From assembly GCA_002366565.1 (NCBI GenBank), contig DFBJ01000012.1:494950-558949 (forward strand): a stretch of 64,000 nucleotides of DNA, written 5' to 3'. Both the position numbers and the translations under genes were made by a program. The notes under the pieces were generated by a model, which was not told the DNA's origin, made no database searches, and saw only the letters and a list, made by a program, of their open reading frames with translations. This DNA comes from Bacteriovoracaceae bacterium UBA3083. Lineage in GTDB: Bacteria > Bdellovibrionota > Bacteriovoracia > Bacteriovoracales > Bacteriovoracaceae. Each line of letters begins with the position of its first letter. The stretch's first letter is position 1. Shown here one piece after another: positions 41,088 through 63,606 of this stretch.

Positions 41088-41097
41088 GAGGATCACA

Positions 41098-41352
41098 ATG
41101 GAAAAAGAACTAGTAAGAGAACATGTACTAAATATTATTGCTGACGTTGCACTAGATGACGACGTTACAACAATTGACGATGCTGTAGCACTAAGAGACC
41201 AATTAGATCTAGACTCTATGGACTTCTTAGACATCGTAATGGAACTCAAGAAAAGACATAAGATTGAGGTTCCTCAAGAAGATTATCCACAATTAGCAAG
41301 CATGAATAGTTGTGTAGAATACCTAACACCAAAGTTTGCAGCACACGCATAA
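41098..41352 (+). CDS. acyl carrier protein (dedicated)
   Basis: 84 aa, acidic, with a phosphopantetheine-attachment motif LDLDSMDFLDIV. Confidence 0.8.
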   Translation: MEKELVREHVLNIIADVALDDDVTTIDDAVALRDQLDLDSMDFLDIVMELKKRHKIEVPQEDYPQLASMNSCVEYLTPKFAAHA

Positions 41353-41404
41353 TTGATTTAAAGGCCACTTTCATAGTGGCCTATTCTTTTAGGAAGATGT
41401 TTAG

Positions 41405-42784: not shown

Positions 42785-42788
42785 AAAT

Positions 42789-44692: not shown

Positions 44693-44694
44693 CT

Positions 44695-46326
44695 ATGAAT
44701 ATTGCAGACCTATTAGTTAAAAGAGCAAATGAACAACCAGATAAACTGGCAATAAAAGCTCCGATTAGTAGAAATGCGGATGGAAGTTATAATTATGAAA
44801 GTAAAACTTTCAAAGAACTTCTAGCAACTACAAGATCTATCGCTAACGGTCTTAAGTCTAAAGGATTAGTTAGTGGAGATAAAGCAGTTGTCTTTGTAAA
44901 GCCAGGACTAGATTTTCCTGCTATCACCTTCGCACTCTTTTCGTTAGGGATTGTCCCTGTATTCATTGACCCAGGAATGGGTAAAGAGAACCTATTAAGA
45001 TCAATCAAGCAAGTTCAACCTCAGGCCTTAATCGCAGTACCGATTGTGCATTTTCTCAGGTTATTTAAAAGGGATACTTTTAAGTCTGTTAAGTGCTTTA
45101 TTACAACAGGATCTTTAACATGGCCTGGAATGTTTTCACTCAAGTCATTAAAAAAACTTCCGCCTGCAGAAATACAAACTAAAGTAAATGAAAATGAATT
45201 AGCAGCAATACTCTTTACTTCAGGAGGAACTGGAATACCTAAGGGTGTTGAATATACTCATAAGATATTTTCAAAACAAACAGAACTACTTCAAAACATA
45301 TTTTCATTAACTAGTGAAGACATAGATATTCCAGGATTCCCTCTCTTTGCTCTTTTTACAATTGCTATGGGAATGACTAGTTGTATTCCAGACATGGATC
45401 CATCTAGACCAGCTGATGCTGACCCGGCCAAACTTGTCCAAAACATACTTGATAATCAAGCTACTTTTGTTGCAGGTTCTCCAGCGATTTGGGAAAAGGT
45501 AGCTTCATATTGTAACGATAAAAAAATAACATTACCAAGTGTTAAGTATCTTGTGATGTTTGGTGCACCAGTAAGAAAAGAAGTTCACCAAAATTTTTCA
45601 AAAGTACTAACTAATGGAACAACCTATACTCCATACGGAGCAACAGAATCACTACCTGTAGCAAATATTTCAGGAAAGTACTTACTTGAAAAAACAGTTG
45701 ATCTATCTTCTAAGGGACGTGGGACATGTGTAGGGAAACCTATATCATCAATGGAAGTAAAAATAATTTCAATTACTGATGAAATACTCTCTACAGTAGA
45801 AGAAATGAAAGAGCTTAGAAATGGTCAGATTGGAGAAATTATTGTTCAAGGAGACACTGTTACTAAAAGTTATTTTGGTATGCCTGAAAAAACCGCTGAA
45901 GCTAAAATATTTGATGGAGATAAATTCTGGCACAGGATTGGAGATATAGGCTACCTAGATGATCAAGGGTATCTATGGTTCTGCGGAAGAAAGACTCATA
46001 GAGTGGAAACTGAAAATGAACTAATGAGTTCAATACAATGCGAATCAATATTTAATGAGCACCAGCTTATTGAAAAGACTGCCCTAGTTGGTGTCTATAG
46101 AGGCAAGAAATATCAAACTCCTGAATTAGTAGTTCAACTAAAAGATCCATCTAAGAAAAGTGCACAATTGAAAGAAGAACTAATAAGCATGGCAAGTACT
46201 CACCCTCATACAAAGAATATAAAGAAAATCTGGTACCACGATAAGTTCCCTGTAGATGTACGTCACAATATTAAAATTGATCGTCTAAAACTTCGGGATC
46301 TTGCTGAGAACGGAGATCTAACATGA
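44695..46326 (+). CDS. oleC: OleC, AMP-dependent synthetase/ligase (beta-lactone synthetase)
   Basis: 543 aa. It has the adenylation core motif FTSGGTGIPKGVEYTH and further ANL-superfamily motifs (YGATE, GDIGYLDDQGYLWFCGRKT). It starts 2 nt after oleB. Confidence 0.8.
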   Translation: MNIADLLVKRANEQPDKLAIKAPISRNADGSYNYESKTFKELLATTRSIANGLKSKGLVSGDKAVVFVKPGLDFPAITFALFSLGIVPVFIDPGMGKENLLRSIKQVQPQALIAVPIVHFLRLFKRDTFKSVKCFITTGSLTWPGMFSLKSLKKLPPAEIQTKVNENELAAILFTSGGTGIPKGVEYTHKIFSKQTELLQNIFSLTSEDIDIPGFPLFALFTIAMGMTSCIPDMDPSRPADADPAKLVQNILDNQATFVAGSPAIWEKVASYCNDKKITLPSVKYLVMFGAPVRKEVHQNFSKVLTNGTTYTPYGATESLPVANISGKYLLEKTVDLSSKGRGTCVGKPISSMEVKIISITDEILSTVEEMKELRNGQIGEIIVQGDTVTKSYFGMPEKTAEAKIFDGDKFWHRIGDIGYLDDQGYLWFCGRKTHRVETENELMSSIQCESIFNEHQLIEKTALVGVYRGKKYQTPELVVQLKDPSKKSAQLKEELISMASTHPHTKNIKKIWYHDKFPVDVRHNIKIDRLKLRDLAENGDLT

Positions 46327-47300
46327 AAATATTAGTTACAGGTGCTGGTGGATTTCTTGGTTACTATATTGCTAGAGATTTAAAGGCTCTAGGCCATGAA
46401 GTATATAATTTTTCTAGATCTCATCATAAAGACCTAGATGAACTGGCCATTACAACTAGACTTGGAAACTTAAACGACCCAGACTCAATCGACAAAGCAC
46501 TCGATAAAATAGAAGCCGTTTTTCATGTTGCTGGCAAAGTAGCGATGTGGGGAAAATGGGAAGACTTCTATCAAACCAATACTATTGGAACAAAAAATCT
46601 AGTAGATGCGTGCCTAAAAAAAGGTATACAAAAATTCATTTACACATCAACACCTAGTGTTGTCTTTGGAAGTGGAGATATAGAAAATGGTGATGAAACA
46701 CTAGAGTACCCAAATGAATTTCTTAGCCTCTATGCTAAATCGAAAATGTTAGCAGAGAAATATGTACTTCAGAAAAACTCTAAAGAGTTTCTAACATGTG
46801 CAATAAGACCACATCTTATTTTTGGTCCTAGAGATAAGAATATTATTCCAAGACTACTTGAGGCAGCTAAAAAAGAGAAATTAAAGAAAATAGGAAGCGG
46901 TAATAATCTAGTTGATATTATTTATGTAGAAAATGCGGCCAAAGCACATATTCAGGCATTTCAAAGTATTACACCAGACTCTCCTATTTCGGGATCACCT
47001 TACTTCATAGGACAAGAAGCTCCTGTTAATCTATGGGACTTTATCAACAAAATTCTTAAGGCCCATGGTCAAAAAACTGTATCAAAAAGTATTTCTGTTA
47101 AATCTGCTTATTCAATAGGAGCTGTAATAGAATTTATATTAAAGTTTCTTAGAGTCTGGAACGTTCATCCACCCATGACAAGATTTGTCGCTCTTCAATT
47201 AGGGAAGAGTCATTACTTTTCTCATAAGAAAGCAAAAAATGACTTTGACTATAGTCCAGACATAACTATAGATGAGGCAATTTCAAGAATCACTCCATAG
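46323..47300 (+). CDS. oleD: OleD, NAD(P)-dependent 3beta-hydroxysteroid-dehydrogenase/epimerase-family reductase (2-alkyl-3-ketoacid reductase)
   Basis: 325 aa. It has an N-terminal Rossmann motif (MKILVTGAGGFLGYYIARDL) and an SDR-extended YxxxK (YAKSK). It overlaps the oleC stop (ATGA). Confidence 0.75.
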   Translation: MKILVTGAGGFLGYYIARDLKALGHEVYNFSRSHHKDLDELAITTRLGNLNDPDSIDKALDKIEAVFHVAGKVAMWGKWEDFYQTNTIGTKNLVDACLKKGIQKFIYTSTPSVVFGSGDIENGDETLEYPNEFLSLYAKSKMLAEKYVLQKNSKEFLTCAIRPHLIFGPRDKNIIPRLLEAAKKEKLKKIGSGNNLVDIIYVENAAKAHIQAFQSITPDSPISGSPYFIGQEAPVNLWDFINKILKAHGQKTVSKSISVKSAYSIGAVIEFILKFLRVWNVHPPMTRFVALQLGKSHYFSHKKAKNDFDYSPDITIDEAISRITP

Positions 47301-49407
47301 AGGCGGGACTTCTTAGATTGTTGTCTCGTCTGAAATTATCAACAATACCTAGCCCATCAAAACGACCTTCATTAAAGTATGTGATAAATGGTGAACCTTC
47401 ATTCGTATAAGCTTCGAAGTTTCCATAATAATAAACATTGTCATAACCAAAGAAAGAAAGAATTTGTGTCTTATTCTTATGTTCTAAATAAATAGTTTGA
47501 ATAATATCTTTCAGTCTCCATAGAGGAACAGCGGCCATATCTTGTGCAACTGATTTCTTAGAATATTCCTCCATACACTTTCTTCTCTTACGGCTTCGTT
47601 TAAAAAAGCTATATTTCTTAGTTTTATTTTTGCAGTAAGTATAGAGGCTTGCAGTAAAGTCATTAAATGCCCACTCAGCGTAGAACTTATTTGAAGAAAC
47701 TTTCATTTCTCTAAGACAACTATTAAAAAGATTTCTAAACCACTTAAAAAAACCACTCTTCTTAGCTCCACACATACTCTCATAACGAGATTTCATCTCT
47801 GACTGCGAGTACCCTAATAAATGATATAGGCCATCCCTATTAATTTTATAGTCACCATTAATCTTAACAGGTCCAATCAATTGGTCTTGTTCAAAAAGTT
47901 TTATCGCTAAGGGATCAACCCCTGAGTAATTATTAAGAACTTCAAGTGCTGCATTCTTATGAGACTTCTTTGTTACTGTATTTGTTTTGGCCGTATAAAA
48001 ATTATGAGAGAATCCGATAGAAACAGATTCTTCTTTTTTCATATCTATATCACCCTCATTAGCAATGAGGTTCTCATTAGCAGAATACTCAACAATCACT
48101 TTCTTAGAGTCACTACTATCTTTATTAATTATAGAATCTAACTTTAAAAGAGATTTAACTAAGACAGCAACAAGTCTTGAAAAGACATTTTGCTTATATT
48201 TTATTTTTTCAAAGTAATGCTTGAAAAATCTATGAACATTCCCATCTTTAACAATTTCTATTTGTTGAGTACTTGCCTCTTTTTGGCCTCCCCAAAATAA
48301 AAGGCCATACTTAGATTCTTTTTGCTCAGATTTTCTCTGTTCTAAAGAGACGATATTATCTCGAAGAGCATATACATCTGACTTTTGCCCATTAAGTATT
48401 CTTTCAACCTGTTGGGAGTAGTAAGTATCTTTCTTAAGTTTCTCAAAGTCTTCTTCATAAAAAGTTAAATACGTTTTTTCAGAATCCTCAAGAGTGTAAT
48501 TGAAATCATATTTAAGCAATGTCATTTGTAATAATTTTAAGAACTCTATCCCAACGCTTGCTGAAACGCCGACACTAGCAGACTTAACTTTTTCCATAGT
48601 TATACGAAGTCGTTCTTTCTCAGTAGATTTCTCTTCATCATGTATTGCTTGAATATCCACACGTGCTAAATTTTCATAACTAGCTAGAACGCCAGCACTT
48701 CCAAATATTGGCCCATAGATAGGTGCTCCAGCGATAGCACCTGCTTTTAGAGATATTGCATCTTCTTTTTGAAGAAATTCATACTCATTTAAATTTAAAT
48801 ATTCTTTATTAGAGAATTTAGTGAAGGCCAGAAATAACTTATCAAAGTTGAGAGTTAAACCTTCCATATAGCTATTAGCGAAGTGAACTGACCTAAAAGT
48901 TCTCCTAAATGAGATTCCTGCGAAAGCAGCATATTGCGCTTCAGAGAAATCAACTATGCCCTGATCCTTTAGGTTAGTTAATAAATTTGCGGCATTGATA
49001 TCAATAATAAATTCATCTGAAACAATCCACTTATCATCACTAAATAAATCTGGAGCAACAGTTCTTCCAGCAATTACTGTAAAATCAAGAAAGTCGTGAT
49101 TGTACTTAATCCCGATATTATTAAGGCCACCAAATACTGTAGTATTCTGACTACTGAGAACGTTAGCGGCCTGCCTCTGCCCTATAGAGTCATAGGTCGT
49201 AGAGAATTCATTAAGAATACTTCGATAAAGAGCATTATCACTTGAGAGCTCGTAACCAGAACTCTTCAAGCCGATAGAATAGTCTCCATATAGAGAATGG
49301 AGCTTTTCTTCATCTAAAATTTGAAAATGTTCGAATTTCTCACCAGCTAATACTTTAGTGGATAGATATAAGACCACACTTATAAGAACATAATGCACCA
49401 ATTTCAT
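47290..49407 (-). CDS. large secreted hypothetical protein (start placed at MKLVHYV… signal peptide)
   Basis: The ORF runs to 49476, but a signal peptide begins at the internal Met (MKLVHYVLISVVLYLSTKVLAG). No recognisable catalytic motifs. Its 3' end overlaps the oleD 3' end convergently by 11 nt. Confidence 0.45.
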   Translation of the reverse strand: MKLVHYVLISVVLYLSTKVLAGEKFEHFQILDEEKLHSLYGDYSIGLKSSGYELSSDNALYRSILNEFSTTYDSIGQRQAANVLSSQNTTVFGGLNNIGIKYNHDFLDFTVIAGRTVAPDLFSDDKWIVSDEFIIDINAANLLTNLKDQGIVDFSEAQYAAFAGISFRRTFRSVHFANSYMEGLTLNFDKLFLAFTKFSNKEYLNLNEYEFLQKEDAISLKAGAIAGAPIYGPIFGSAGVLASYENLARVDIQAIHDEEKSTEKERLRITMEKVKSASVGVSASVGIEFLKLLQMTLLKYDFNYTLEDSEKTYLTFYEEDFEKLKKDTYYSQQVERILNGQKSDVYALRDNIVSLEQRKSEQKESKYGLLFWGGQKEASTQQIEIVKDGNVHRFFKHYFEKIKYKQNVFSRLVAVLVKSLLKLDSIINKDSSDSKKVIVEYSANENLIANEGDIDMKKEESVSIGFSHNFYTAKTNTVTKKSHKNAALEVLNNYSGVDPLAIKLFEQDQLIGPVKINGDYKINRDGLYHLLGYSQSEMKSRYESMCGAKKSGFFKWFRNLFNSCLREMKVSSNKFYAEWAFNDFTASLYTYCKNKTKKYSFFKRSRKRRKCMEEYSKKSVAQDMAAVPLWRLKDIIQTIYLEHKNKTQILSFFGYDNVYYYGNFEAYTNEGSPFITYFNEGRFDGLGIVDNFRRDNNLRSPASME

Positions 49408-50452: not shown

Positions 50453-50462
50453 GATTTAGACC

Positions 50463-50492
50463 CTCGCCTTTACAGGCGAGGTTTTCTTTTAG
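50463..50492 (+). terminator. rho-independent terminator of Prx-Grx gene
   Basis: The hairpin is cctcgcc-tttacag-ggcgagg followed by ttttctttt. The U-tract overlaps the stop codon of the convergent fabI-like gene. Confidence 0.6.
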
Positions 50493-51283
50493 AGATTATC
50501 AGCAACAGTATTAACCACATCACTATCAAAATGATTGCAGCTCATGCCAGCATCTACCTTTATCCCAGTAGCATTTATTCCACTAGAAAGAGGGCTTAGT
50601 AAAAAAGCTATAGTATTTGCAACTTCTACTGTTTTTAAATTTTCTTTTCTTAAAGTTAATTTTTCTGCAAATAAGTAGTTATTTATATAACCTGGAATTC
50701 CAGCAGAAGCAGAAGTTTTAAGTGGCCCAGAACAAACCGCATTACATCTGACTCTTGATTTTAAACTAAGAGACTTTGCAAGGTATGCTACAGTTGCATC
50801 TAATGTTGCCTTTATAGGTCCCATATATCCATAGCTTGTTGCTCTAGTATCTGAAATAGATACTGTTACAATAGATGCATTTTCATCAAATGACGATGAA
50901 AGGGCATTTGATAGAGACACTAATGAGAATGAAGAGATATTTGTTGCTTGAAGGTAGTCAGCAAGTTTAGTTTCATGAAATGGTTTGATCCCTTCAGAAT
51001 AATTCGCAAAAGCAATTGAGTGAAGAAAGCCATTAATCTTTACACCTAGTTCACTAATACTTTTTCCAAAATCTTCAATGGCCTGAGAATCCTCAACATC
51101 AAGAATATATATTTGAGATTCGGGAAATAGTTTTTGAACTTTCTCTTTATGATCAGGAGATTGAACTGTGAAAATTAAATTAGATCCTGCATCACTAAGT
51201 ATTTTTGCACTGTGATAGGCAACACTCTTTCTATTTGCAACTCCTGAAATAACAAAAGTTTTATTTTTAAATCCAAAATCCAT
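50489..51283 (-). CDS. fabI: enoyl-[ACP] reductase, FabI-type (NADH)
   Basis: 264 aa. The N-terminal VISGVANRKSVAYHSAKIL resembles E. coli VTGVASKLSIAYGIAQAM. The catalytic Tyr/Lys segment YGYMGPIKATLDA resembles YNVMGLAKASLEA. Confidence 0.8.
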   Translation of the reverse strand: MDFGFKNKTFVISGVANRKSVAYHSAKILSDAGSNLIFTVQSPDHKEKVQKLFPESQIYILDVEDSQAIEDFGKSISELGVKINGFLHSIAFANYSEGIKPFHETKLADYLQATNISSFSLVSLSNALSSSFDENASIVTVSISDTRATSYGYMGPIKATLDATVAYLAKSLSLKSRVRCNAVCSGPLKTSASAGIPGYINNYLFAEKLTLRKENLKTVEVANTIAFLLSPLSSGINATGIKVDAGMSCNHFDSDVVNTVADNL

Positions 51284-51708
51284 TATTTTTCCTCAATTAA
51301 AGCGCAGCTAAACTCAATGGCCATAACAACTTTACCATTAACTGTAGAGCGAGCTTTCATATAGTACGCATTTGAAATTTGATCTATTAATGAAACATCC
51401 ATGATGAGTTCATCACCAGGTTTTACAAAATTTTTAAATTTTGCACTATTAACTTTAGTAACAACACCAAGCCCACTTCCTTCCATTGTCGCCATTAGTA
51501 GTGCTCCAGACTGAAAAGATGCTTCTTGCAGTAAAACACCTGGCATAATAGGATTTCCAGGAAAATGTCCTTTGAAGAAATCTTCATCACCAGTTAAAGT
51601 TAATGATGTCTTTATTGAACCTTCGCCTCTTTCAATAACTTTATCAACAAAGAGAAATGGAGGTTTTTGCGGTAAAAGCTCTAGTACTTCATTTGAAAAT
51701 TTACTCAT
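51283..51708 (-). CDS. 3-hydroxyacyl-ACP dehydratase, FabZ/FabA-like hot-dog
   Basis: 141 aa. It has the GHFPGNPIMPGVLLQEASFQ motif (catalytic His…Glu of FabZ). Its start overlaps the FabG stop. Confidence 0.75.
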   Translation of the reverse strand: MSKFSNEVLELLPQKPPFLFVDKVIERGEGSIKTSLTLTGDEDFFKGHFPGNPIMPGVLLQEASFQSGALLMATMEGSGLGVVTKVNSAKFKNFVKPGDELIMDVSLIDQISNAYYMKARSTVNGKVVMAIEFSCALIEEK

Positions 51709-52454
51709 TACAGTCCACCAGTTATTTCTAAAGAAGTCCCTGTAATATAACCTGCATGCTCACTACTAAGAAATAAAACAGCGTTGGCCACTTCTTCAAC
51801 TTTACCAAATCTTCTTAAAGGAACTTGTTTTTTATATTCCTTAACTTGATCCGCTGGTAGATCTGCAATCAACTCTGTCTCTATGAACCCAGGACAGATA
51901 TTATTTACTGTTATTCCTTTTTTACCAACTTCCTTTGAGAGTGATTTAGAGAGTGCTACTTGACCTGCTTTTGAAGCTGCGTAATTTGCTTGACCTGAAA
52001 GTCCAAGAGCTCCACCTACTGAACTCATATTTACAACTCTACCGTAACGATTCTTCATCATTAAAGGTATAGACATTTTAGTCATTAGGAATGTTCCTTT
52101 TAAGTTTACATCCATAACACTATTCCAATCTTCTGTTGGCATAAGAGCTAAGACATTATCCTTTCTAATTCCAGAGTTATTAACAAGGATATCAACTTTT
52201 TGATATTCTGATTCAACATAGCTGTAAAACTCTTGAACTTGCTCTTCTTTTGAAACATCAAACTTACGAAGGTCAATATTCTTTCCAAGTTCTCCAAGAG
52301 ACTCCTTAAAGTTATTTGCTGCTTCATCATTAGAAGTATATGTAGCAATTACAGTTGCACCATGCTCAAGAAAAGCTGTAGTCACACCTCTTCCAATACC
52401 TCTTGTTCCACCTGTTACGATTACGACTCTATTTTCAAAATTAAAATTCATCAT
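51708..52454 (-). CDS. 3-oxoacyl-ACP reductase (FabG-type SDR)
   Basis: 248 aa. It has TGGTRGIGRG, NNSG, and the catalytic S…YAASKAG motif (YxxxK). Confidence 0.8.
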   Translation of the reverse strand: MMNFNFENRVVIVTGGTRGIGRGVTTAFLEHGATVIATYTSNDEAANNFKESLGELGKNIDLRKFDVSKEEQVQEFYSYVESEYQKVDILVNNSGIRKDNVLALMPTEDWNSVMDVNLKGTFLMTKMSIPLMMKNRYGRVVNMSSVGGALGLSGQANYAASKAGQVALSKSLSKEVGKKGITVNNICPGFIETELIADLPADQVKEYKKQVPLRRFGKVEEVANAVLFLSSEHAGYITGTSLEITGGL

Positions 52455-52464
52455 TATTTATCAC

Positions 52465-53880
52465 CTATTTAGAAAGAAACGTTTCTACTTCATGGGACTG
52501 AATTATCCCGTAATTTGCAGCACCAAGCCACCCTGACATTATTATCCCTACTGAACCGGAGTGAAAAAGCCCTTCTACCTGCTTATGCATCTCCATACTT
52601 ATAGGGAGCCCTTCAAACTTTGTTCCAAAGCTTGCACCTTTATTGTGATGTGTATACTTCTCAACAGTGAGAGGAGTTGAGCAATCAATGTAGTCTATTT
52701 TATCTCGTACTCCTGGAATAATTTTCTCTAGAGTTACAAGAGCTCTCTCGATCGTAAATTGCTTTTTTTCTAGATACTCTTCCTTAGATAGGTTAACCCA
52801 ATCTTCATAACGAGCATTACTAGATGAGACAACAGCATACCTTCCATCTCTATCCTCTCTCATCTCAGGATAATAAACAGAGAAAGTCTGACTTCCTACC
52901 TTTGGCGAAAGAATCAAATCAGTATTAAAGTCTTTGTCATCAGAATAGAAAACAAGCTCACCAATGTCTGGTATAGACTCACCTTTCTTAATTCCCATAA
53001 AGACTTGGCAACTTGAAGTGTTTAATCTAACTTTCTTTGCTTTCTCTACATAAGTCGGATCAAAATTCTCTTCCCCAGCTAACTTAAAAACTGTACTTAA
53101 GAGATTAGAATTAGAAAGAACAGATTTTGCCTTTATTAACTTTCCACCAAGAGTAACGCCTTGAACTTTTTTATTCTCAACAACAATTTCATCAACTTTT
53201 GAATGAAGCTTTATATCGACTCCATTTTTAACAAGCTCATCTTTCATCATCGAAATAAGCTTATCAGTACCACCTTGGAATATATAAACACCTTTGCTCA
53301 TAAAATTTGAGAAAACGATCCCATAAGTAATCGCAGGATCTTCAAGGGTAGAACCATTTGCATAAACAATTGGCTCCATCAGAAATCTGTGTACATCATT
53401 TCGACCAGGAAAGAACTTTTCAAAGAGCTCTCTATTAGTCATACCACTATCGTCATAAAAATTCATGGCAGCGAGATAATCAAAGAACCCGACAACAACG
53501 TCTTTTTCTAGATTAAAAGTCTCTGTTAATGTTTTTATATAATGATCTTTAGTGAAATCTGTTTCAATATTAAACTGAGGATTAGAGAATTTAACACTTT
53601 TAACTTGAACTATTCGACTAGCAATTTCTTTTGACCAATACTTTCTACATGTCTTAATCATTCCGACAGGAAATCCATGAAGAGAAACATCAAAGATATG
53701 ATCTCCGGCCTGCCTCTTAAACCAAGTAGCAAAACCACCAAGCTTATTATGTGATTCAAGAAGTAGAACACTTCTTCCATTACGAGCTAATTTATTTGCG
53801 GCAGTCATCCCTGCAAGGCCTGAACCAACAATAATAACTTCGTAATCTTTTGTAATTTGATCTTTCTTTTTGAGTAGCAT
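52465..53880 (-). CDS. FAD-dependent oxidoreductase, phytoene-desaturase-like (paralog of 41405..42784)
   Basis: 471 aa. The N-terminal YEVIIVGSGLAGMTAANKL…LLLESHNKLGG aligns with the paralog, and a C-terminal FAD motif is present. Confidence 0.7.
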   Translation of the reverse strand: MLLKKKDQITKDYEVIIVGSGLAGMTAANKLARNGRSVLLLESHNKLGGFATWFKRQAGDHIFDVSLHGFPVGMIKTCRKYWSKEIASRIVQVKSVKFSNPQFNIETDFTKDHYIKTLTETFNLEKDVVVGFFDYLAAMNFYDDSGMTNRELFEKFFPGRNDVHRFLMEPIVYANGSTLEDPAITYGIVFSNFMSKGVYIFQGGTDKLISMMKDELVKNGVDIKLHSKVDEIVVENKKVQGVTLGGKLIKAKSVLSNSNLLSTVFKLAGEENFDPTYVEKAKKVRLNTSSCQVFMGIKKGESIPDIGELVFYSDDKDFNTDLILSPKVGSQTFSVYYPEMREDRDGRYAVVSSSNARYEDWVNLSKEEYLEKKQFTIERALVTLEKIIPGVRDKIDYIDCSTPLTVEKYTHHNKGASFGTKFEGLPISMEMHKQVEGLFHSGSVGIIMSGWLGAANYGIIQSHEVETFLSK

Positions 53881-53992
53881 TTGTGACCCTAAATATTAGT
53901 ATTATAAGGCCACTAGCTTACCAAGAATAGTACATAAAAACCATTCTACATGGTCATTTTCGGAGCATTTAACACTATGCTCCCTTCATTTT

Positions 53993-55159
53993 TTAAGGAG
54001 TCACTCTCAGCACAGCAGTACCAAGTACCTCATCCTTATATTTTGTATAAATCTTAGCCTGCAGTACAATTTCATCATCACTATTAAGAGTGATTCCACC
54101 ACCAAAGGCAGGTCCATTTGCAGAGTGAATAACCGCTGTAGATTGGTCTGTATTGATTAATTCACCCTCTGTTAAGACTTCTTTAAAAATAAAACCATCA
54201 TAAAAGAAGATTGCTCGTTTTTGACTAGCATTAATTGCTCTAAACGCAACATTCCCTTTCTCATTTACTGAAGGTGAAAAATACTCAAGATTTGATATTC
54301 CACCTTGTCCTTCTGTTGCAATAACTTGGTACTGATCACCTATCTGACGAACAAGTACTCGAACTCCACTTTTTAATGTTGCAATAAAAGCAATATACTT
54401 AGAGTTAAAGTGACTACCTATAGAATTGTTAAATTGAGAAAAAATAGAATCTTCACTTAAGTCATGATCAGAATTTAAACGAACAAAGCCACCATTTTTA
54501 TCATATAGACGAATTGAATCTGGCTGAGACTCAGAAAGTGAACTGCCTTCTCTAACTTTTAAAACAATATTATTTCCATCAAAGAAAGAGGCTCCAAATA
54601 GGTATGCAATCTCAGGGTCTTTATTTGTAGCAATTGTATTTAGCTCCTTGTTCTTCAAGGTTATTATTGCCTTTTCACCAGTCTTAAAGCTTACTCTAAA
54701 AAGAATTGTCCCAGAGTTATTAACTTCTGGATCACGAAGAGATGAGAACATTGATGTTTCTTCACTATTTAACACCTTCTCTAAAGTGTTCTTTTTATTT
54801 TTGTATAAATAAAGTGCTTCTACGCTCATTTCATCAAAGACAGAAAAAATGACATCTCCTTTTTCATTTATAAAAGGATCGCTTATATACTTACCTACTT
54901 CAGATAAGTAAATTGTAGTTCCATCTGGATAATGATCATTCTTTAGCCATAGTCCCATTTTAACTTCTTCTTCAACAACAGTTGAAAAGTTAAAAGCAAT
55001 AGAACCTCTACTATTATTTTTTATTGTTGAGTTGAGTACAAAACTTGCGTCAGGCATATTAAACGAACCATAGTTATGTGCACGTGCAACAAGGTCAACG
55101 TTTGAAGCAAGTAAACTTGCTGAAAAGAGTAATGGGATTAAGAATTTAATTAAAATCAT
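53993..55159 (-). CDS. secreted/periplasmic hypothetical protein (beta-rich, repeated strand motifs)
   Basis: 388 aa with a signal peptide (LIPLLFSASLLASN). It is translationally coupled to the upstream RND gene (ATGA overlap). Confidence 0.45.
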   Translation of the reverse strand: MILIKFLIPLLFSASLLASNVDLVARAHNYGSFNMPDASFVLNSTIKNNSRGSIAFNFSTVVEEEVKMGLWLKNDHYPDGTTIYLSEVGKYISDPFINEKGDVIFSVFDEMSVEALYLYKNKKNTLEKVLNSEETSMFSSLRDPEVNNSGTILFRVSFKTGEKAIITLKNKELNTIATNKDPEIAYLFGASFFDGNNIVLKVREGSSLSESQPDSIRLYDKNGGFVRLNSDHDLSEDSIFSQFNNSIGSHFNSKYIAFIATLKSGVRVLVRQIGDQYQVIATEGQGGISNLEYFSPSVNEKGNVAFRAINASQKRAIFFYDGFIFKEVLTEGELINTDQSTAVIHSANGPAFGGGITLNSDDEIVLQAKIYTKYKDEVLGTAVLRVTP

Positions 55160-58100
55160 TCATCCTCCAGATGGATGTGGGCCTTATTTAGAATAAAAAG
55201 CCTTATGCTAAAAAAATATGAATACATACATGGAATTAAAAATAGAGTGACAGCAGTTGCAAGTAGTAATCCCCAGCCAAGAGAGAGCATCATCTCAGCA
55301 AGCATTGAATCATAACCAGCAACCCCATAGGCAGTAGGAAGGACACCAGCGACAGTAGTCAGCGTAGTAACAACAATTGGCCTAAGTCGTGTAGATGAAA
55401 CCTTAGCAATTTTTCCCATTGCTTCTTCATCATCATAGTGAATATCTTCTTCAAGCTTAGAGATCATAATAATAGCATCATTTACAACGACACCAATCAT
55501 TCCAAGCGCTCCAACGGCAGCAAAGAATCCATATACAAACATTCCGTGTGCAAGTAATGCATAAACAACACCAGTAAGTCCAAAGGGAACAATTGCCATG
55601 ATTAAAAGTGGCGCTCCTAAAGAATTGAACATTATAACTAATATTATATAGATAACTCCGATTACCATAATTAGAGAGATAAGGAAGTCACCACCTGATT
55701 CACGTGTATCTTGAACTTCTCCAATGAATGTTATTACTGAACTTGGATAATCTTTAATTATCTTAGGAAAAACATTTGCTTCAAAATTCTCAGCAACCTC
55801 TACAGGAGTAATCGCAACACCATCTTTAATATTCCCATATACGATCGTAGTTCTCTTATAGTCTTTTCGTTCAATTTTTGCAGGTTTCATAAATTCTTCA
55901 ATAGTGACAACTTTATCTAAAGTAATGAAACCGCCTGAATTATTTTCTATTTTTAATTTTCGAAGATTTACTAAATCAAACTTATTTTTTGCATCAACAG
56001 TGAGTCTTACCTCGACATCTTCATCACCTTTACTAACAGTATAAAGAATAGCACCTTCAATAAAGGCGCGAAGAGAAGTTGTAATATGTTGAGGAGATAG
56101 ATTAAAGCGAACTAACTTTTCTTGATTGATTTTAAAATTATACTCTCTCTTTGTCAGAGGCTTTTCAATCTCAATATCTTTTAATGCTGAATCTTCAGTC
56201 ATATATTGCTTGATAAGCTTTGTAATCTCATCTCGTTTTTTATCATCATTTTCTTGAACTTGAATCTCTAAAGCAGAACCACTGCTTCGTCCCCACCTAG
56301 ACTTAAGAAAACTTACTCTAACAAGACCTTCTATTTTGCTAGATTCCTTCTTCCATTTCGAGATAAAGTCATTAAGCCCCATTTCCCTATCATCTTTATT
56401 AACTAGTTCAACATTTATACTGGCCTGATTCTCTAGAGCACTAGACCCTCTTCGACTTTCACCAATCTTTGACTGAACAGCTACAACACCATTTACAGTA
56501 TCTGCAAGAAGCATCTCCTCAAGAGGTTCAATCAGTTTCGACATTTCGAATCGATTAATCCCTTTAGGCCCTATAACTTTTAAATTAACTTCTTTACCTT
56601 CTTCCCTAGGGAACATCACAAATTTCATCTTCGATTTGAATAAGTAACCAGAAAGACAAGAAATCAAAACAGCTGCAACTAGAACTAAGAATCTAAATCT
56701 AAGTAGTTTCTCTAATAGAACTGAAAACTTTTCTTCATACTTAAAAAACCAATCGGAGCTGAATCCTTTAATTTTGAATTTAGAAAAATAGCTTTTTCTT
56801 TCAAGTAAATGAGATGGCAGAATTGTTGTCGACTCTATAAGAGATGCAACTAACATAATAATTACTACAAATGGAATATACTCAACAAACTTACCAAAGA
56901 AACCTTCAAAGAATAATAGAGGGACAAAGGCCACACAGGTAGTTAATATACTTCCAAATACAGGCTTGAGTATTTCATATGTTCCGCCTACAGCAGACTC
57001 AATAGGAGATTCTCCAAGGTATCTTTTTCTTGAAATATTTTCTGCTACAACAATTGCATCATCTACAACAATCCCCATAACAATAATTACTGCAGCAAGA
57101 GTCATATTATTTATCGTATAACCTACAAGGGTCATACTTATTACTGCAAAAGCAAGAGTGAACGGAATCCCCATACCAACCCATAGCCCTGATTTGAAGT
57201 CCAAAAATATAAAAAGAACTATAAATATAAGAACAAAACCAATTAGACCATTTGAAGCAACAATAGAAAGCCTATTCTTTACGTCGTAAGATTCATCATC
57301 CATGAGAATCACTCTTAATCCACTTTTTGAGTGTGTTCTCTTAAATTCCTCAACAAACTTAACAACACTCTCTTGAGCCGTCAGGATATCTGTAGAGTAT
57401 TTCTTTTTTACATTTATAACGATACCTTCATGACCTTGAAGTTTTCTAATAGTAGTAGACTTTGTAAACTTAGGCTCTACGTTTGCAACTTCACCAAGAC
57501 GAACTCCTTTACCGGCATAGTTTCCCTGTAGGTAAAGCTCATCAAGACTTTTTTTATCTTCGAGTTCGTGAATCGCTGTTACTTTTGATTGCTCTTTATC
57601 TTCTAATGTTCCAAGAGGAACCCTAATATGGTTATTTTTTATAGTGCTAACTAGCCTATCAATTGAGAGGTCATGTTGGTCAATCTTTATTGGGTCTAAG
57701 AGAATATGTAATTCAGGATCTTCATAGCCACTCTTATCAATGCCACTGACATCACTAAGAGTTTTTATTTGATTTTCGAAATTTAAAACCATACTCTGTA
57801 GCTTTTTTCTAGATTCGTAGTCAAGAGCACGAACACCTTCAAGGTAAAAGCCTACATCTATAATTGCTTTTTCAGTGGATTTAAACTGTCTAAAATTTGG
57901 AGTATCAACCTCCATAGGTAGATTTGCTCTCAGAGTAGCATCTTTAATGTCTTGTACTACTTCTCTATAATCAGCAGCATCTTCATCAATAACAACACTA
58001 AAAGAAGAAGACCCTGTAGAGGAAGTTGTTAATATCTCCTCTATGCCAGAAACTTCTTTTAACTCGTCTTCAATTGGTTTTGTAACGAATAGTTCAACAT

Positions 58101-58275
58101 CTTCAGCAGCTGCACCTGGATATGAGGCACTGATACGAATCCAGTTACTTTCAAATTCTGGCATCTCTTCTTTACCTATTTGGTTCCAAGCAAAGATGGC
58201 CATTAGAAATGTACCAATGAAGAGTATATTTGATACAAGGTGATTTTGAGTAAAGTAGTTTATTATAGATTTCAT
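55156..58275 (-). CDS. RND-superfamily efflux transporter permease (AcrB/HAE1-like, 12-TM)
   Basis: 1039 aa. The N-terminal TM1 is followed by the …ISASYPGA… motif as in AcrB. It has two large periplasmic loops and 6+6 TM segments. No adjacent MFP or OMF gene. Confidence 0.8.
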   Translation of the reverse strand: MKSIINYFTQNHLVSNILFIGTFLMAIFAWNQIGKEEMPEFESNWIRISASYPGAAAEDVELFVTKPIEDELKEVSGIEEILTTSSTGSSSFSVVIDEDAADYREVVQDIKDATLRANLPMEVDTPNFRQFKSTEKAIIDVGFYLEGVRALDYESRKKLQSMVLNFENQIKTLSDVSGIDKSGYEDPELHILLDPIKIDQHDLSIDRLVSTIKNNHIRVPLGTLEDKEQSKVTAIHELEDKKSLDELYLQGNYAGKGVRLGEVANVEPKFTKSTTIRKLQGHEGIVINVKKKYSTDILTAQESVVKFVEEFKRTHSKSGLRVILMDDESYDVKNRLSIVASNGLIGFVLIFIVLFIFLDFKSGLWVGMGIPFTLAFAVISMTLVGYTINNMTLAAVIIVMGIVVDDAIVVAENISRKRYLGESPIESAVGGTYEILKPVFGSILTTCVAFVPLLFFEGFFGKFVEYIPFVVIIMLVASLIESTTILPSHLLERKSYFSKFKIKGFSSDWFFKYEEKFSVLLEKLLRFRFLVLVAAVLISCLSGYLFKSKMKFVMFPREEGKEVNLKVIGPKGINRFEMSKLIEPLEEMLLADTVNGVVAVQSKIGESRRGSSALENQASINVELVNKDDREMGLNDFISKWKKESSKIEGLVRVSFLKSRWGRSSGSALEIQVQENDDKKRDEITKLIKQYMTEDSALKDIEIEKPLTKREYNFKINQEKLVRFNLSPQHITTSLRAFIEGAILYTVSKGDEDVEVRLTVDAKNKFDLVNLRKLKIENNSGGFITLDKVVTIEEFMKPAKIERKDYKRTTIVYGNIKDGVAITPVEVAENFEANVFPKIIKDYPSSVITFIGEVQDTRESGGDFLISLIMVIGVIYIILVIMFNSLGAPLLIMAIVPFGLTGVVYALLAHGMFVYGFFAAVGALGMIGVVVNDAIIMISKLEEDIHYDDEEAMGKIAKVSSTRLRPIVVTTLTTVAGVLPTAYGVAGYDSMLAEMMLSLGWGLLLATAVTLFLIPCMYSYFFSIRLFILNKAHIHLEDE

Positions 58276-59789: not shown

Positions 59790-60015
59790 TAGAGAATTAT
59801 AACAGAAGGTATTCTATAATAATTACGCAATGCGTAACAATAACTTCAATTGTCTCCTTAAAAGTGGCATAGTCATTGCTATATACCCACACACACCCTC
59901 CAAAAAAGAAACGGACATCTTTATTAGGGACAGAATGAAACTAAACTGGTGTCTATTTGTTACTACAAGTCATTTTTTAGACTTATTGGCACCAAACTTC
60001 AGGAGAAAAAAAGTA

Positions 60016-63000
60016 ATGAAGAATCTAAGCACGCTAAAGAACTCAAAGCTAACTACATCAATTACACTTGCATTGCTTTTTGCTCTATCTCCACAAGTAT
60101 TGGCCGCAAACCCTAGTTGGGCCAAAGGTTATATAGGCAAAGTAAGTTTCAAAATAAACGATGATACCAATCTTCAACAAAGAATTAGAAAGGTCGAGGC
60201 GACAAAAACTGCATACAACCAGTCTAAACAACAACTAAATAAGCAACAAAAAGTTGTTGATCAATTACAAAAGAGTAAACAAGCTTTAACAAAAGAAATA
60301 AAAAAGCTGACTGATGAAATCTCAAGTAAAATAACACTTAAGTCTAAAACAGAAACAGACCTTAAGAAAAATAAATTGAATATCACAAAAGTAAATAAGA
60401 ACTTAGAAAGTACTACTACTCAACTAACAAAAAAACAAAATGAACTTACTAAATCAAAGAAAACGTTAGCCAGTAAAGAGAATAAGCTAAAAAAGCAAGA
60501 AGAGTCTTGCGCAGCTTCTCCTTCTGCAGCCTGTAAGAGCAAAGTAAAAGAATTACAACAAGATATAAAAGTCTATAAAACAATTATTGCTCAACAAAAG
60601 AAGCAAGCGACAACAATAGCAGCAAAAGTTAAAAGTATAAAAAATAACTTAAATGCATTAAAAACAAAGGTTTCAAATCAAACTAAGCAAATTGCCAAGC
60701 TTAACTCAGAAATAATAGCCAAAAATAAAAAGGTAACTAGCAATAAGAACCAGCTAAAGAAAAGTGCTCAACAAATAAAGACAGCAAAAAGCAAGTTGAA
60801 TGTTATTCAAAAAGAAACAAAAAACCTAGCTGCTGCACTAGAGTACGCAGAGATAGATAAAGATACATATAAAAAGAGAATTATCGCTAGAGTTCTAGAT
60901 GCAAATAAGAAAGGAGCTCATGAAGGTTCACTAGATGGAGAATCTGATGGAAGATTCCTATCAAACAGACTCGGAACTTACCACGGTTCAAGAGATGGTG
61001 AAAATGACGGACTCATAGACGGAACTAGAGATGGAAGAGAAAGGCAGAGAGCTATTGGCTATCAACAAGGTCAGCTCGACGGTTCTGTTAGAGCAGAACA
61101 AGAAGGAACAACAACAGGAACCCTTGAAGGTACATACGCAGGAAATATTGATGCGGCTAAAAAAGCAGCTACAACAGATGGTACAAATAGAGCAAATGCT
61201 TCTGATGCTATAAGTGTTGGTACTACTCAAGGGGCAGCAGCAGGAATGCAAAGAGCTGTTGATACAGGAAAGCAAGTAGGTACACAAGCTGGTGAGCAAG
61301 AGGCTGTTAATAAATTTGAATCAAGGGCCTTAGACCAAAAAACTGTTTCTGGTTCTTTTGCCGGTGCATTCGCAAGGGTCATTCCAACATTTCCAAGAAA
61401 TCACCAAGGAAGAAACTATAATCCATCAGGTAACTACACAATAAAGGTAGCCGAACTAGCATTTAAGGATGGCTATAAGACTAGATATAAAGGAAGAGTA
61501 CGTTCAACATATGAAACTGTTATTCCAAGAATCTACAATGATACTTATACTAACAACTATGAAGAGAATTACGAAGAGACATACTCTAGAGAATACCCAA
61601 ATGATAGACAGGCTGGATATAATCAGGGAGAGATTAATGCATTTAATAGAGATTATGGAATGCACTATGATAACGCTTACAATCGCTCAAGAACTGAGTT
61701 TAGCCTAAACCCGAACACATCTTCTACTGAATACCAATCAACTTATAGAAATGTAGAAGAGAGCGTATATCAGTCTCAGTATGAAAACTTAAGAATTTCT
61801 CAATACCAACAAGTTGAAGCCGATACATTCAACTCTAACATTGAAGAGCAAACAGAACTATTTAGATCTAAAAGACATGCATCAGTTACAAGTATATACA
61901 AGAGCAATCCTGTATTAAAATTTGTATCATCTTCAATTGTTGATGGAGGAATCAACGGAGTTGCTGCTAATGACGGTATTTTCCAGCCAGGAGAAACAAC
62001 TATACATAACTTAGTTATACAAAACTTTGGAGACAAAGAAGCTAAAAATGTTGTTGTAGTTATGGAGGATGGTTCGAAATCTGTAATTGACTCAATCCCT
62101 GCAAAATCAATAACTACAGTAAAGGGAGCAGCGAAATCAAAGGTACAAGCAACTCTAGGATCTACTGATATAAAGATATTAAATGTATACTCTCCACTAA
62201 CTGCAGAGGCGTCGATACAAGGTAGGCATTTTTCAAATAGATCACAAGGAAAAGTAAACTCAGGTGATAGAAAATCACAAAGAGTAAGCTACCCTCTTTC
62301 TCTTACAGGGTTATCAACTAATGGAACTTTAATCATTGGGAAAAATAACACTTTAAGCGTCAACCTAATCAACAACTCTAAAAGAAATTATACAGGAGAA
62401 CTTAAAGTTGAAGTTAAAGAGAATGCTAAATCAAAGATAATAACAAAAGAGTTTAGCCCTATCGCAAGTCTTAACTCATCTACAACTTTAAAAGATTCAG
62501 TAGTAAAGGTAGTTAATGAAGAAGACGTTTATACACCAATTACTTTTACTGCAACAGTAAGTAAGAATGGAGTAACTCTTGGAACACTGGATAATAAACT
62601 TGTGACAATGGCGAAGTCTCCATATGTAGAAAAGGCCGGTAAACCTGTTGTTGTAGTTAACTCTGAATATTCTTCGAGAGATCTAGTAGACTTACTTTCA
62701 ACAATGGGTGGATTAAATGGCGCTAGTGTATTAGACACATCTCTTGCATCTTTAAATAAAAATACTCTGACTAAAGGAGTTAATGGAAAAACATTACTAC
62801 TTCTAGAAAAAGGTACTTTAAAAGATGTAGATGGCCTACTTAAAAAGTCTACGGCAACTTCTGTTGTTCTTCTAGATGAATTACAAAATGGCTTAGGTAG
62901 CGTGAAATCTATCTCAACATTTAAAGATGCTGAAATGTTTGACTTCAATGTTTCTGGTGTAACTTCAAATACAAAGGTTATGTTTGCAAATCCAATGAGA

Positions 63001-63606
63001 TCTTCAGGACTAAAAACTGCAGTCCCAGTAATGGCATCAGACATCAAGTCATACAAGAAATACTTAGCACTTGCAGAGTTAATGAAACTATCTAATGACC
63101 AAATTCTAAAAAAGATCGAGTCATCAGTAACAAAAAGCTCATTCTTCTCACCTACCGTAGCAAACAAGCAACTTATGCAAGCTGGTATAATTAGAGGAAT
63201 TGATGAAACAATGAGAATTAACAAGCACTATGATCTAAGTGGAAGTGGACTTAGTAGAGACAAAGATATTGCGAATCTATTGAAAGATGACAAATCTCTT
63301 TTTCATAATAAACTTGGAGACTTAGTTGACGGAAAAGCTAAAGATAAAAATATTTCGCTATTTCTTTTTGCACACGATTTCTACTATACTATGAGAAATG
63401 CTCTTAAGTCTTACTCTCCAATTGAAGACAGAGTTAAATTTGCAATACAAAATAGAATGTTTGGTGCATTATTTATCTCTGCAGCATTAAAAGATGTTGA
63501 TAAGAGTTACAAAGCATTAAAGAAATACGATAAGAATCTTTATAAAAGAGTCTCAAATAGCAAAGGTATGCATGCTCCTTTTAAAATGGCACCAGAAAGA
63601 GATTAA
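60016..63606 (+). CDS. very large secreted protein with N-terminal coiled-coil region (hypothetical)
   Basis: The start is placed at MKNLSTL… with an aggag RBS 10 nt upstream and a signal peptide (LALLFALSPQVLAANP); the ORF extends upstream to 59830. Residues about 60-330 are K/Q/T-rich coiled coil, followed by a Gly/Asp-rich region (DG repeats) and a beta-rich C-terminal part. Confidence 0.5.
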   Translation: MKNLSTLKNSKLTTSITLALLFALSPQVLAANPSWAKGYIGKVSFKINDDTNLQQRIRKVEATKTAYNQSKQQLNKQQKVVDQLQKSKQALTKEIKKLTDEISSKITLKSKTETDLKKNKLNITKVNKNLESTTTQLTKKQNELTKSKKTLASKENKLKKQEESCAASPSAACKSKVKELQQDIKVYKTIIAQQKKQATTIAAKVKSIKNNLNALKTKVSNQTKQIAKLNSEIIAKNKKVTSNKNQLKKSAQQIKTAKSKLNVIQKETKNLAAALEYAEIDKDTYKKRIIARVLDANKKGAHEGSLDGESDGRFLSNRLGTYHGSRDGENDGLIDGTRDGRERQRAIGYQQGQLDGSVRAEQEGTTTGTLEGTYAGNIDAAKKAATTDGTNRANASDAISVGTTQGAAAGMQRAVDTGKQVGTQAGEQEAVNKFESRALDQKTVSGSFAGAFARVIPTFPRNHQGRNYNPSGNYTIKVAELAFKDGYKTRYKGRVRSTYETVIPRIYNDTYTNNYEENYEETYSREYPNDRQAGYNQGEINAFNRDYGMHYDNAYNRSRTEFSLNPNTSSTEYQSTYRNVEESVYQSQYENLRISQYQQVEADTFNSNIEEQTELFRSKRHASVTSIYKSNPVLKFVSSSIVDGGINGVAANDGIFQPGETTIHNLVIQNFGDKEAKNVVVVMEDGSKSVIDSIPAKSITTVKGAAKSKVQATLGSTDIKILNVYSPLTAEASIQGRHFSNRSQGKVNSGDRKSQRVSYPLSLTGLSTNGTLIIGKNNTLSVNLINNSKRNYTGELKVEVKENAKSKIITKEFSPIASLNSSTTLKDSVVKVVNEEDVYTPITFTATVSKNGVTLGTLDNKLVTMAKSPYVEKAGKPVVVVNSEYSSRDLVDLLSTMGGLNGASVLDTSLASLNKNTLTKGVNGKTLLLLEKGTLKDVDGLLKKSTATSVVLLDELQNGLGSVKSISTFKDAEMFDFNVSGVTSNTKVMFANPMRSSGLKTAVPVMASDIKSYKKYLALAELMKLSNDQILKKIESSVTKSSFFSPTVANKQLMQAGIIRGIDETMRINKHYDLSGSGLSRDKDIANLLKDDKSLFHNKLGDLVDGKAKDKNISLFLFAHDFYYTMRNALKSYSPIEDRVKFAIQNRMFGALFISAALKDVDKSYKALKKYDKNLYKRVSNSKGMHAPFKMAPERD

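Follow-up and report, generated by a model that had tools for sequence, protein, structure and literature searches.

Gene content of the two operons

The DNA analysed here, called the window throughout, is a stretch of 64,000 nt from the forward strand of contig DFBJ01000012.1 (assembly GCA_002366565.1, positions 494,950-558,949) of Bacteriovoracaceae bacterium UBA3083. The feature under study comprises six minus-strand open reading frames (ORFs; 50489-58275), four of which form a string encoding a flavoenzyme and three enzymes of fatty-acid type. This string faces a plus-strand operon (39202-47300) that contains homologues of the olefin-synthesis genes oleABCD. The G+C content of the window is ~35%, and its proteins are 89-90% identical to proteins labelled Halobacteriovorax marinus or Halobacteriovorax sp., which marks it as DNA of a marine predator of the Bacteriovoracaceae (Bdellovibrionota). 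No tRNA or Rfam family was detected in the window.

An earlier reading made from the sequence alone (hereafter the sequence-only reading) had located all six ORFs correctly, on the minus strand, and Pfam matches back its assignments except for a 388-aa protein, which has no domain. In the order of transcription, the four genes of the string encode FAD2, a flavoenzyme of the CrtI family (52465-53880; Amino_oxidase and NAD_binding_8 domains), a FabG-like 3-oxoacyl-acyl carrier protein (ACP) reductase (ketoreductase, KR; 51708-52454; adh_short, E = 5e-58), a FabZ/ApeI-like 3-hydroxyacyl-ACP dehydratase (DH; 51283-51708; FabA-like domain, E = 2e-20, and the ApeI-like Pfam family PF22818), and a FabI-family enoyl reductase of non-housekeeping type (ER; 50489-51283; adh_short_C2, E = 3e-47). 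The string had been described as overlapping, which is true of KR/DH and DH/ER, each pair sharing 1 nt, but not of FAD2 and KR, which are separated by a gap of 10 nt. FAD2 is preceded by a spacer of 112 nt that contains a 7-bp hairpin (53962-53983), directly after the 388-aa gene, and a TATAAT box. At the other end, an 8-bp, GC-rich, terminator-like hairpin (50462-50481) lies between ER and a convergent peroxiredoxin-glutaredoxin (Prx-Grx) gene. The hairpins at both ends, together with the TATAAT box, suggest that the genes from FAD2 to ER form a separate transcription unit in this species.

The plus-strand operon consists of eight tightly packed genes, and the ole operon and the ketosynthase (KS) and ACP genes are, by Pfam and NCBIfam matches, as had been described. 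The first gene encodes a MarR/TrmB-type regulator (39202-39861; weak TrmB and MarR_2 Pfam matches) and overlaps the next by 4 nt. It is followed by KS, a dedicated, elongating FabF-like ketosynthase (39858-41087; N and C domains of ketoacyl-synt), by a dedicated ACP (41098-41352; PP-binding domain with the DSM serine motif), and by FAD1, a second flavoenzyme, of the CrtI/CrtISO family (41405-42784; Amino_oxidase and NAD_binding_8). OleA, a thiolase of the type that catalyses head-to-head Claisen condensation (42789-43820), scores 427.6 bits with NF006720 (cut-off 285) and contains the motifs DLSNACLG, FLEPS, GHQVG, and GNTGSA, so that the Cys/Glu/His/Asn set is intact. An OleA of Halobacteriovorax marinus has been reported active in an in vivo assay (PMC7064751). 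The homologues of OleB, OleC, and OleD are contiguous with OleA, in overlapping genes (42789-47300). OleB, an alpha/beta-hydrolase of the beta-lactone decarboxylase type (43814-44692; Abhydrolase_1), has haloalkane-dehalogenase-like proteins as its best NCBIfam matches, and its position after OleA is conserved. OleC, of the AMP-dependent olefin beta-lactone synthetase type (44695-46326), reaches 617 bits with NF006754 (cut-off 478), and its second-ranked matches are two olefin beta-lactone synthetase models (500 and 481 bits). For OleD, of the 2-alkyl-3-oxoalkanoate reductase type (46323-47300), the OleD equivalogs rank top with 333 and 330 bits, both under the cut-off of 580.

The fatty-acid-type enzymes were compared with their housekeeping counterparts by setting bit scores against the cut-offs of the curated NCBIfam equivalogs. 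KS scores 291.6 bits with the FabF model TIGR03150 (cut-off 493.75), ACP is under every NCBIfam ACP cut-off (best 41.1 vs 66), and ER reaches 166.5 bits with its best FabI equivalog (cut-off 370), the 13 FabI models having cut-offs of 299-477. KR is barely under TIGR01830 (290.2 vs 297.75) and passes the FabG subfamily model NF009466 (249.9 vs 222), and DH is barely under its cut-offs (PRK00006, 111.7 vs 113; TIGR01750, 106.7 vs 155). The catalytic motifs are intact: Cys-His-His in KS, the DSM serine in ACP, His and Glu in DH, and Ser-Tyr-Lys in KR. The Tyr-x6-Lys of ER is conserved in an alignment to FabI of Staphylococcus aureus. As far as can be judged from sequence, the enzymes appear active and of a diverged type.

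Canonical fab genes occur in the contexts plsX-fabH-fabD-fabG-acpP-fabF and lpxD-fabZ-lpxA. A search for fab, export, and phosphopantetheinyl transferase (PPTase) genes covered the annotated ORFs of the window, several of which have no Pfam match; no plsX, fabH, fabD, lpx, or PPTase gene was found among them. The sequence-only reading had called the arrangement non-housekeeping, a view that stands: the genes are without canonical context and, across species and phyla, always accompany a CrtI-family gene and usually ole genes. It had also credited the locus with every step of an elongation cycle, which is overstated. KS, KR, DH, ER, and ACP are present, but there is no FabD and no PPTase in the locus, and because these genes, fabH, plsX, and lpx were not found among the annotated ORFs, the locus is not a self-sufficient synthase. 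Conversely, KR, DH, and ER could be the ordinary fatty-acid synthesis enzymes of the cell, encoded merely beside the ole operon, as the KR and DH scores close under the equivalog cut-offs and the intact catalytic motifs would allow. This is very improbable, however, given that ER is far under all FabI models, that in four other phyla, too, the orthologous gene (46-51% identity) is part of this cluster, and that the string has no canonical fab context and always starts with a CrtI-family gene.

Conservation of the cluster within and beyond Bacteriovoracaceae

A profile scan with FAD2 over one genome per GTDB species yielded relatives in 543 species, and the best 80 of the 543 loci, almost all of them labelled Bacteriovoracaceae, were compared together with flanks of 10 kb. 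FAD2, KR, DH, and ER occur together in 61 of the 62 loci with at least 3 kb of downstream sequence. Ole genes are found within the flank in 40 of the 51 loci where it is complete, and several of the remaining 11 have insertions that push the expected site past the flank. Where the sequence reaches beyond OleA, the order of genes is constant, with FAD1 in 15/15 loci, then ACP in 7/7, and KS in 4/4. Orthologues of the MarR-type regulator (44-46% identity) hold the same position in L048, L053, L054, and L063 (loci are numbered with the prefix L). The two halves are usually convergent, as in the window; in L048, ER and OleD converge with no gene between them. In five species, the genes form one co-directional string of 12, MarR-KS-ACP-FAD1-OleA-B-C-D-FAD2-FabG-FabZ-FabI.

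The proposal of a single biosynthetic locus, made up of the FAD2-to-ER string and the ole operon, is thus borne out by co-location across ~80 Bacteriovoracaceae species and by recurrence in other phyla. The sequence-only reading had named a lack of co-conservation with ole as grounds for refuting the link; the counts above show co-conservation, and the link withstands this check. The linkage of the string to the ole operon is near certain, and the joint system is older and wider than the sequence-only reading supposed. We favour the reading that FAD2-KR-DH-ER (50489-53880, minus strand) and MarR-KS-ACP-FAD1-OleABCD (39202-47300, plus strand) are convergent halves of one biosynthetic system, which would make special, probably polyunsaturated, acyl chains for Ole.

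Several loci of this set show additional features. L053, L075, and L043 carry the typical Bacteriovoracaceae-type cluster on contigs labelled Sulfitobacter sp., Flavobacteriaceae, and Epsilonproteobacteria, and these odd labels probably reflect binning or labelling errors rather than transfers. In L035, labelled Bdellovibrio, a second, divergent ole-like set lies upstream of FAD2 (~700-9900) and consists of an OleA-like protein, two alpha/beta-hydrolases, a short-chain dehydrogenase/reductase (SDR), and an AMP-ligase, with a 21%-identical RND permease on the opposite strand. In one subclade (L041, L042, L044, L047, L049, L052), a second AMP-ligase gene recurs at a distance of 4-9 kb upstream from FAD2; its product shares 21-23% identity with OleC, and beside it L041, L044, L047, and L049 encode a second SDR (35-39% identical to KR); the extra genes of this subclade are possibly further acyl-activating or tailoring genes.

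A second search, using a distant FAD2 member, matched proteins from Opitutaceae, Puniceicoccaceae, Planctomycetota, Thermodesulfobacteriota, and Candidatus Wallbacteria. From the protein library clustered at 50% identity, it led to nine loci of other phyla, with flanks of 7-10 kb. Orthologues of the cluster thus occur in Thermodesulfobacteriota, Planctomycetota, Verrucomicrobiota, and Wallbacteria, at 37-73% identity to the window proteins: 71-73% for ACP, 58-61% for KS, 52-58% for KR, 52-57% for FAD2, 47-50% for OleA, 46-51% for ER, 37-49% for FAD1, and 37-44% for DH. These values are high for relatives so distant. In L086 (Thermodesulfobacteriota), 11 genes are collinear (KS-ACP-FAD1-FAD2-KR-DH-ER-OleA-OleB-OleC-OleD). 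The metagenome contigs L089 and L091 have the order OleC-OleD-KS-ACP-FAD1-FAD2-DH-ER, and L083 (Puniceicoccaceae) and L087 have FAD2-DH-ER-OleA-OleB, so that ole genes adjoin the module in five of the nine loci. No ole gene is seen in the flanks of L084 (Planctomycetota; KS-ACP-FAD1-FAD2-DH-ER), L085 (Wallbacteria; KS-ACP-FAD1-FAD2-KR-DH-ER), L088 (KS-ACP-FAD1-FAD2-KR-DH, without ER), and L090, whose cluster is broken by insertion sequences. The recurrent core across phyla comprises KS, ACP, FAD1, FAD2, DH, and ER; the ketoreductase is optional (absent from 6/9 clusters), and the MarR-type regulator was not seen in any of the nine loci. In two clusters of Planctomycetota type, L084 (12784-14304) and L091 (12695-14085), ER is followed by genes for a PPTase (ACPS) and a TauE-family membrane protein; the PPTase hints at a dedicated carrier-protein system and speaks against housekeeping types. 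Two small genes of L086, for a 23S-rRNA-intervening-sequence protein (6842-7201) and a PDDEXK_3 nuclease (8687-9091), are wedged between FAD1 and FAD2 and between FAD2 and KR, respectively, and are apparently unrelated to the cluster.

These loci bear on a second interpretation, that the module makes an end product of its own, such as a membrane fatty acid of unusual or polyunsaturated structure or some other acyl lipid, with Ole as a frequent but non-obligatory neighbour. The clusters without ole in the flanks of L084, L085, and L088 fit it, as do the PPTases of L084 and L091, and Rattray et al. proposed polyunsaturated fatty acids (PUFA), not hydrocarbon alone, as the product of related clusters. 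We nevertheless regard it as unlikely. The flanks extend over only 7-10 kb, and ole may lie just outside; moreover, adjacency to ole recurs in independent arrangements (convergent, co-directional on either side, OleAB alone, OleCD alone), which would be hard to explain unless module and ole were functionally tied.

The sequence-only reading had called FAD1 and FAD2 clear paralogs. The relationship is real (27% identity, E = 8e-33) but ancient: each is more similar to its own orthologues in other phyla, as the identities above show, than to the other, and because they share only 27% identity, the duplication predates the spread of the system. FAD2 is the most conserved gene of the system, at 63-93% identity across the 80 species. 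Its full-length matches in the library drop from E = 1e-96 (38% identity) to ~1e-33 (26-29%), with only fragments in between, and these scores place it in a tight family set off from the generic CrtI relatives found at the level of ~1e-33. The best match of the predicted FAD2 structure is the carotenoid desaturase 4REP (TM 0.79), with plant PDS and CrtI next; carotenoid desaturases work on long lipid chains. FAD2 is, however, under all carotenoid-enzyme cut-offs (carot_isom, 107.1 vs 586.9; crtI_fam, 74.3 vs 238.1), and FAD1 scores 123.7 bits with its best NCBIfam match, the carotenoid isomerase (cut-off 586.9). No phytoene or squalene synthase was found near either gene. True carotenoid enzymes (CrtI, CrtD, CrtISO) were rejected as an identification on these grounds, the fold alone being common.

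By analogy with CrtI and CrtISO, which act on C40 hydrocarbons, the flavoenzymes might still act after condensation, desaturating, saturating, or isomerising the finished long-chain olefin, with KS, ACP, KR, DH, and ER merely setting chain length. The carotenoid desaturase fold, the best NCBIfam matches to carotenoid isomerase and desaturases, and the position of FAD1 directly before OleA are what such an order would predict. It is nonetheless quite improbable. Even in loci that show no ole gene, KS-ACP-DH-ER is accompanied by both FAD1 and FAD2, which argues for an acyl-side substrate, and CrtI similarity is no predictor of a hydrocarbon substrate, as the CrtI homologues of Kuenenia gave no lycopene in Escherichia coli, a result that is silent on olefins (Javidpour et al., 2016; PMC4790861). 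The substrate is most likely a growing or finished fatty acyl chain and not the final hydrocarbon, and FAD1 and FAD2 would introduce or move double bonds in it.

The RND permease and other neighbouring genes

The two remaining ORFs of the feature encode a secreted repeat protein of 388 aa (53993-55159, minus strand), whose membership in the system is doubtful, and an RND permease of the HAE1 (AcrB) type (55156-58275, minus strand; ACR_tran, E = 1e-148), which lies outside the conserved system. The former has an N-terminal signal-like sequence and a weak NCBIfam match to MXAN_5453/NxxGxxAF repeats; the best solved relatives of the latter are CmeB, MdtB, and MexK. Their translational coupling is as had been described, since the stop codon of the permease gene and the start codon of the 388-aa gene overlap in ATGA. 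The permease likewise has no membrane fusion or outer membrane factor partner: the annotated ORFs of the window yielded neither an HlyD nor an OEP domain, and the genes on either side of the permease gene encode an MscS channel and the secreted repeat protein. Among these ORFs, the permease thus stands alone and not in a complete tripartite system of the AcrAB-TolC type.

The claim that exporter and secreted protein belong to the module did not survive comparison. Of the 75 loci of other species that show the upstream side, not one has an RND gene beside FAD2, and in L004, the closest other species with upstream sequence (84% FAD2 identity), a methyltransferase-MscS pair runs directly into FAD2 without the RND or the 388-aa gene. 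In 29/75 loci, weak homologues of the 388-aa protein (24-32% identity) are encoded upstream of FAD2, never paired with an RND gene. Their placement looks like inherited synteny because their neighbours, among them CinA and a PF21688 flavoprotein, are generic and specific to a clade. These upstream genes, CinA, the PF21688 FAD-dependent protein, and a 1,690-aa protein, were themselves rejected as members: they are generic, confined to one clade, and look like inherited synteny. Export of the lipid product by the permease and its coupled secreted protein is suggested by their position on the same strand, 112 nt upstream of FAD2, by their mutual overlap, and by the weak homologues of the secreted protein. 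It is nevertheless extremely unlikely in view of the counts just given, the generic HAE1 type of the permease, the hairpin and TATAAT box that separate both genes from FAD2, and the absence of RND and secreted-protein genes from all nine other-phyla loci. The RND pump, the MscS channel, and the upstream methyltransferase are lineage-specific neighbours.

Between the two halves lie two genes that the sequence-only reading had regarded as inserted. This is correct for the Prx-Grx gene, which is convergent with ER and found in the closest relatives only, but not for the other, a conserved resident that occurs between ER and OleD in 30 species. It encodes a predicted outer-membrane beta-barrel with a Cys-rich helical insert (47290-49407, minus strand; 705 aa counted from the likely ATG), which is predicted to be either a family-specific accessory member or a conserved neighbour.

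Other parts of the window contain further genes. A 1,258-aa, coiled-coil-rich, low-complexity protein (59830-63606, plus strand) is encoded divergently from the methyltransferase-MscS-RND operon and has a 52%-identical homologue at the same place in L004. The MarR-KS operon is preceded, at a distance of 1.6 kb, by a gene for a PaaZ-type bifunctional aldehyde dehydrogenase/hydratase (35558-37597, plus strand; TIGR02278, 951 bits), and an enoyl-CoA hydratase gene (7262-8095, plus strand) is farther from the lipid locus. A mevalonate-pathway operon (8097-13454, minus strand) contains genes for HMG-CoA reductase (11103-12425) and a diphosphomevalonate-decarboxylase-like protein (9000-10088), as well as three adjacent ORFs without a Pfam match at 1e-5. 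A link between this operon and the lipid locus was considered and rejected, as it is ~26 kb from the ole operon and ~37 kb from the six-ORF feature and was not seen as a neighbour in the related loci. Two adjacent genes of the peptidase U32 family (18559-20945, minus strand) recall, by their pairing, the oxygen-independent hydroxylase pairs of quinone synthesis.

Proposed function and comparison with known systems

In the proposed pathway, the dedicated KS and ACP would elongate an acyl chain, with DH, ER, and, in this lineage, KR serving the cycle, while malonyl loading and carrier activation would be borrowed from primary metabolism. The two CrtI-family flavoenzymes would insert or shift double bonds, with no need for oxygen-dependent desaturases. 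OleA would then join two such chains head to head, and OleD, OleC, and OleB, in the manner established for Ole pathways, would convert the condensate, via a beta-lactone, into a long-chain, probably polyunsaturated, membrane olefin. A direct hand-over from the carrier protein to OleA is suggested because the locus contains no thioesterase or separate CoA ligase; it would parallel the coupling of OleA to the Pfa synthase reported in vivo (PMC6463001). A role as precursor module for Ole is likely, and a polyunsaturated product is plausible but unproven. More tentatively, the paired flavoenzymes together with discrete KS, ACP, DH, and ER could constitute an oxygen- and Pfa-independent route to polyunsaturated acyl chains, which OleABCD would turn into polyunsaturated hydrocarbons of the C31 type.

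Precedents for parts of this scheme exist. A Pfa synthase together with OleA produced a 31:8 ketone in E. coli (PMC6463001). Desulfotalea psychrophila has no PKS-type PUFA synthase, yet contains C31:8 and C31:9 hydrocarbons, and its genome encodes the phytoene-dehydrogenase-like proteins DP1860, DP2405, and DP2406; clusters for type II fatty-acid synthesis (FASII) with genes of this kind have been described in Kuenenia, Desulfotalea, Geobacter, and Pelobacter, and a new anaerobic flavin desaturase was suggested as an extension of FASII (Rattray et al., 2009; PMC2649909). A 2026 review still treats the desaturase step as a proposal. In the literature covered, an incomplete selection, no publication was found on the module fused with oleABCD, on its minimal core, or on its occurrence in Bdellovibrionota.

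A number of points weigh against the reading of the two halves as a precursor pathway for Ole. The olefin product in Halobacteriovorax is purely a deduction from its genes. OleA enzymes have been characterised on acyl-CoA, and neither a thioesterase nor a separate acyl-CoA ligase is encoded in the locus. The presence of ER implies that most cycles are fully reduced, so that a saturated or mono-unsaturated product also fits. KR and DH miss the housekeeping cut-offs by a narrow margin. About six of the 51 Bacteriovoracaceae loci have no ole gene within 10 kb for no evident reason, and because four of the nine loci in other phyla (L084, L085, L088, L090) have none in the flank, the module can exist without adjacent ole genes and may have another product there. 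Finally, two of the CrtI-type genes of Desulfotalea have adjacent locus tags (DP2405/DP2406), but their likeness to FAD1 and FAD2 is by description only.

If the proposed pathway is correct, it would explain C31:8 and C31:9 hydrocarbons in bacteria without Pfa, such as Desulfotalea, and give a function to the "phytoene desaturase-like" genes long suspected in the ladderane clusters of anammox bacteria. Two questions could thereby become testable: the long-standing one of the Pfa-less origin of long polyunsaturated hydrocarbons (Desulfotalea, planctomycetes), and the role of CrtI-like genes in fatty-acid-type clusters. The window holds a compact version of the gene set, with ~12 kb of core genes, in a host that is a cultivable predator and with an OleA whose counterpart from a close relative is already active when expressed in E. 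coli, and synteny across phyla marks out the smallest set to reconstitute (KS, ACP, FAD1, FAD2, DH, and ER). Should the flavoenzymes desaturate or isomerise acyl-ACPs, they would represent a new, oxygen-free enzymology of unsaturated lipids and a toolkit for hydrocarbon engineering; should the product be an ordinary olefin, the locus would be a modest case of a dedicated precursor module.

Among known systems, the one closest in function is that of Shewanella and Photobacterium, where a Pfa synthase works with OleABCD to yield a C31:9 hydrocarbon. The Pfa synthase likewise brings KS, ACP, DH, and ER functions of its own and provides the special acyl chain that OleA condenses (PMC6463001; PMC3098273), and the Pfa synthase genes are often linked to ole genes, as here. 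However, the components here are single-domain proteins of 84-471 aa and include no multidomain PfaA-D, tandem ACPs, FabA-type DH domains, or acyltransferase, and they include two CrtI-family flavoenzymes, which Pfa lacks. By this analogy, the window system would be the type II, discrete-enzyme counterpart of an Ole-feeding Pfa synthase. The canonical oleABCD operons of Xanthomonas campestris and Micrococcus share the four enzyme types, their order, and the overlapping genes, but draw on ordinary acyl-CoAs of the housekeeping pool and have no dedicated KS, ACP, DH, ER, or flavoenzymes. Type II clusters for aryl polyenes resemble the module in their discrete KS, ACP, KR, and ApeI-like dehydratase (PF22818); unlike them, the module lacks a chain-length factor, enzymes for an aryl starter, genes of LolA-like or MMPL type, and glycosyl- and acyltransferases. 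An aryl-polyene or flexirubin cluster was therefore rejected, since these hallmark genes are absent and ER is present; because of ER, a conjugated polyene is not expected.

CrtI-family enzymes acting on acyl chains have a precedent in UfaD of Rhodobacter sphaeroides, a fatty-acyl desaturase of this family that functions in furan fatty-acid synthesis on phospholipid-bound, methylated chains. UfaD is not known to cluster with genes for KS, ACP, DH, ER, or Ole enzymes. It illustrates that flavoenzymes of the CrtI/amine-oxidase fold can desaturate acyl chains, and is set beside FAD1 and FAD2 here by description only. The Desulfotalea and Kuenenia clusters, like the window, combine type II FabF, ACP, FabZ, and FabG with genes of the amine-oxidase/CrtI family. 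They also contain genes for radical-SAM enzymes, a CoA-ligase, a membrane protein, and several FabF paralogues, all of which are missing from the window system. They differ further in that FabI is reported elsewhere in the genome and in that the clusters were not linked to ole by Rattray et al. (2009). Seen against all of these, the system of the window is best filed as an Ole pathway that would receive its chains from a secondary lipid synthase of type II, with tailoring by flavoenzymes.

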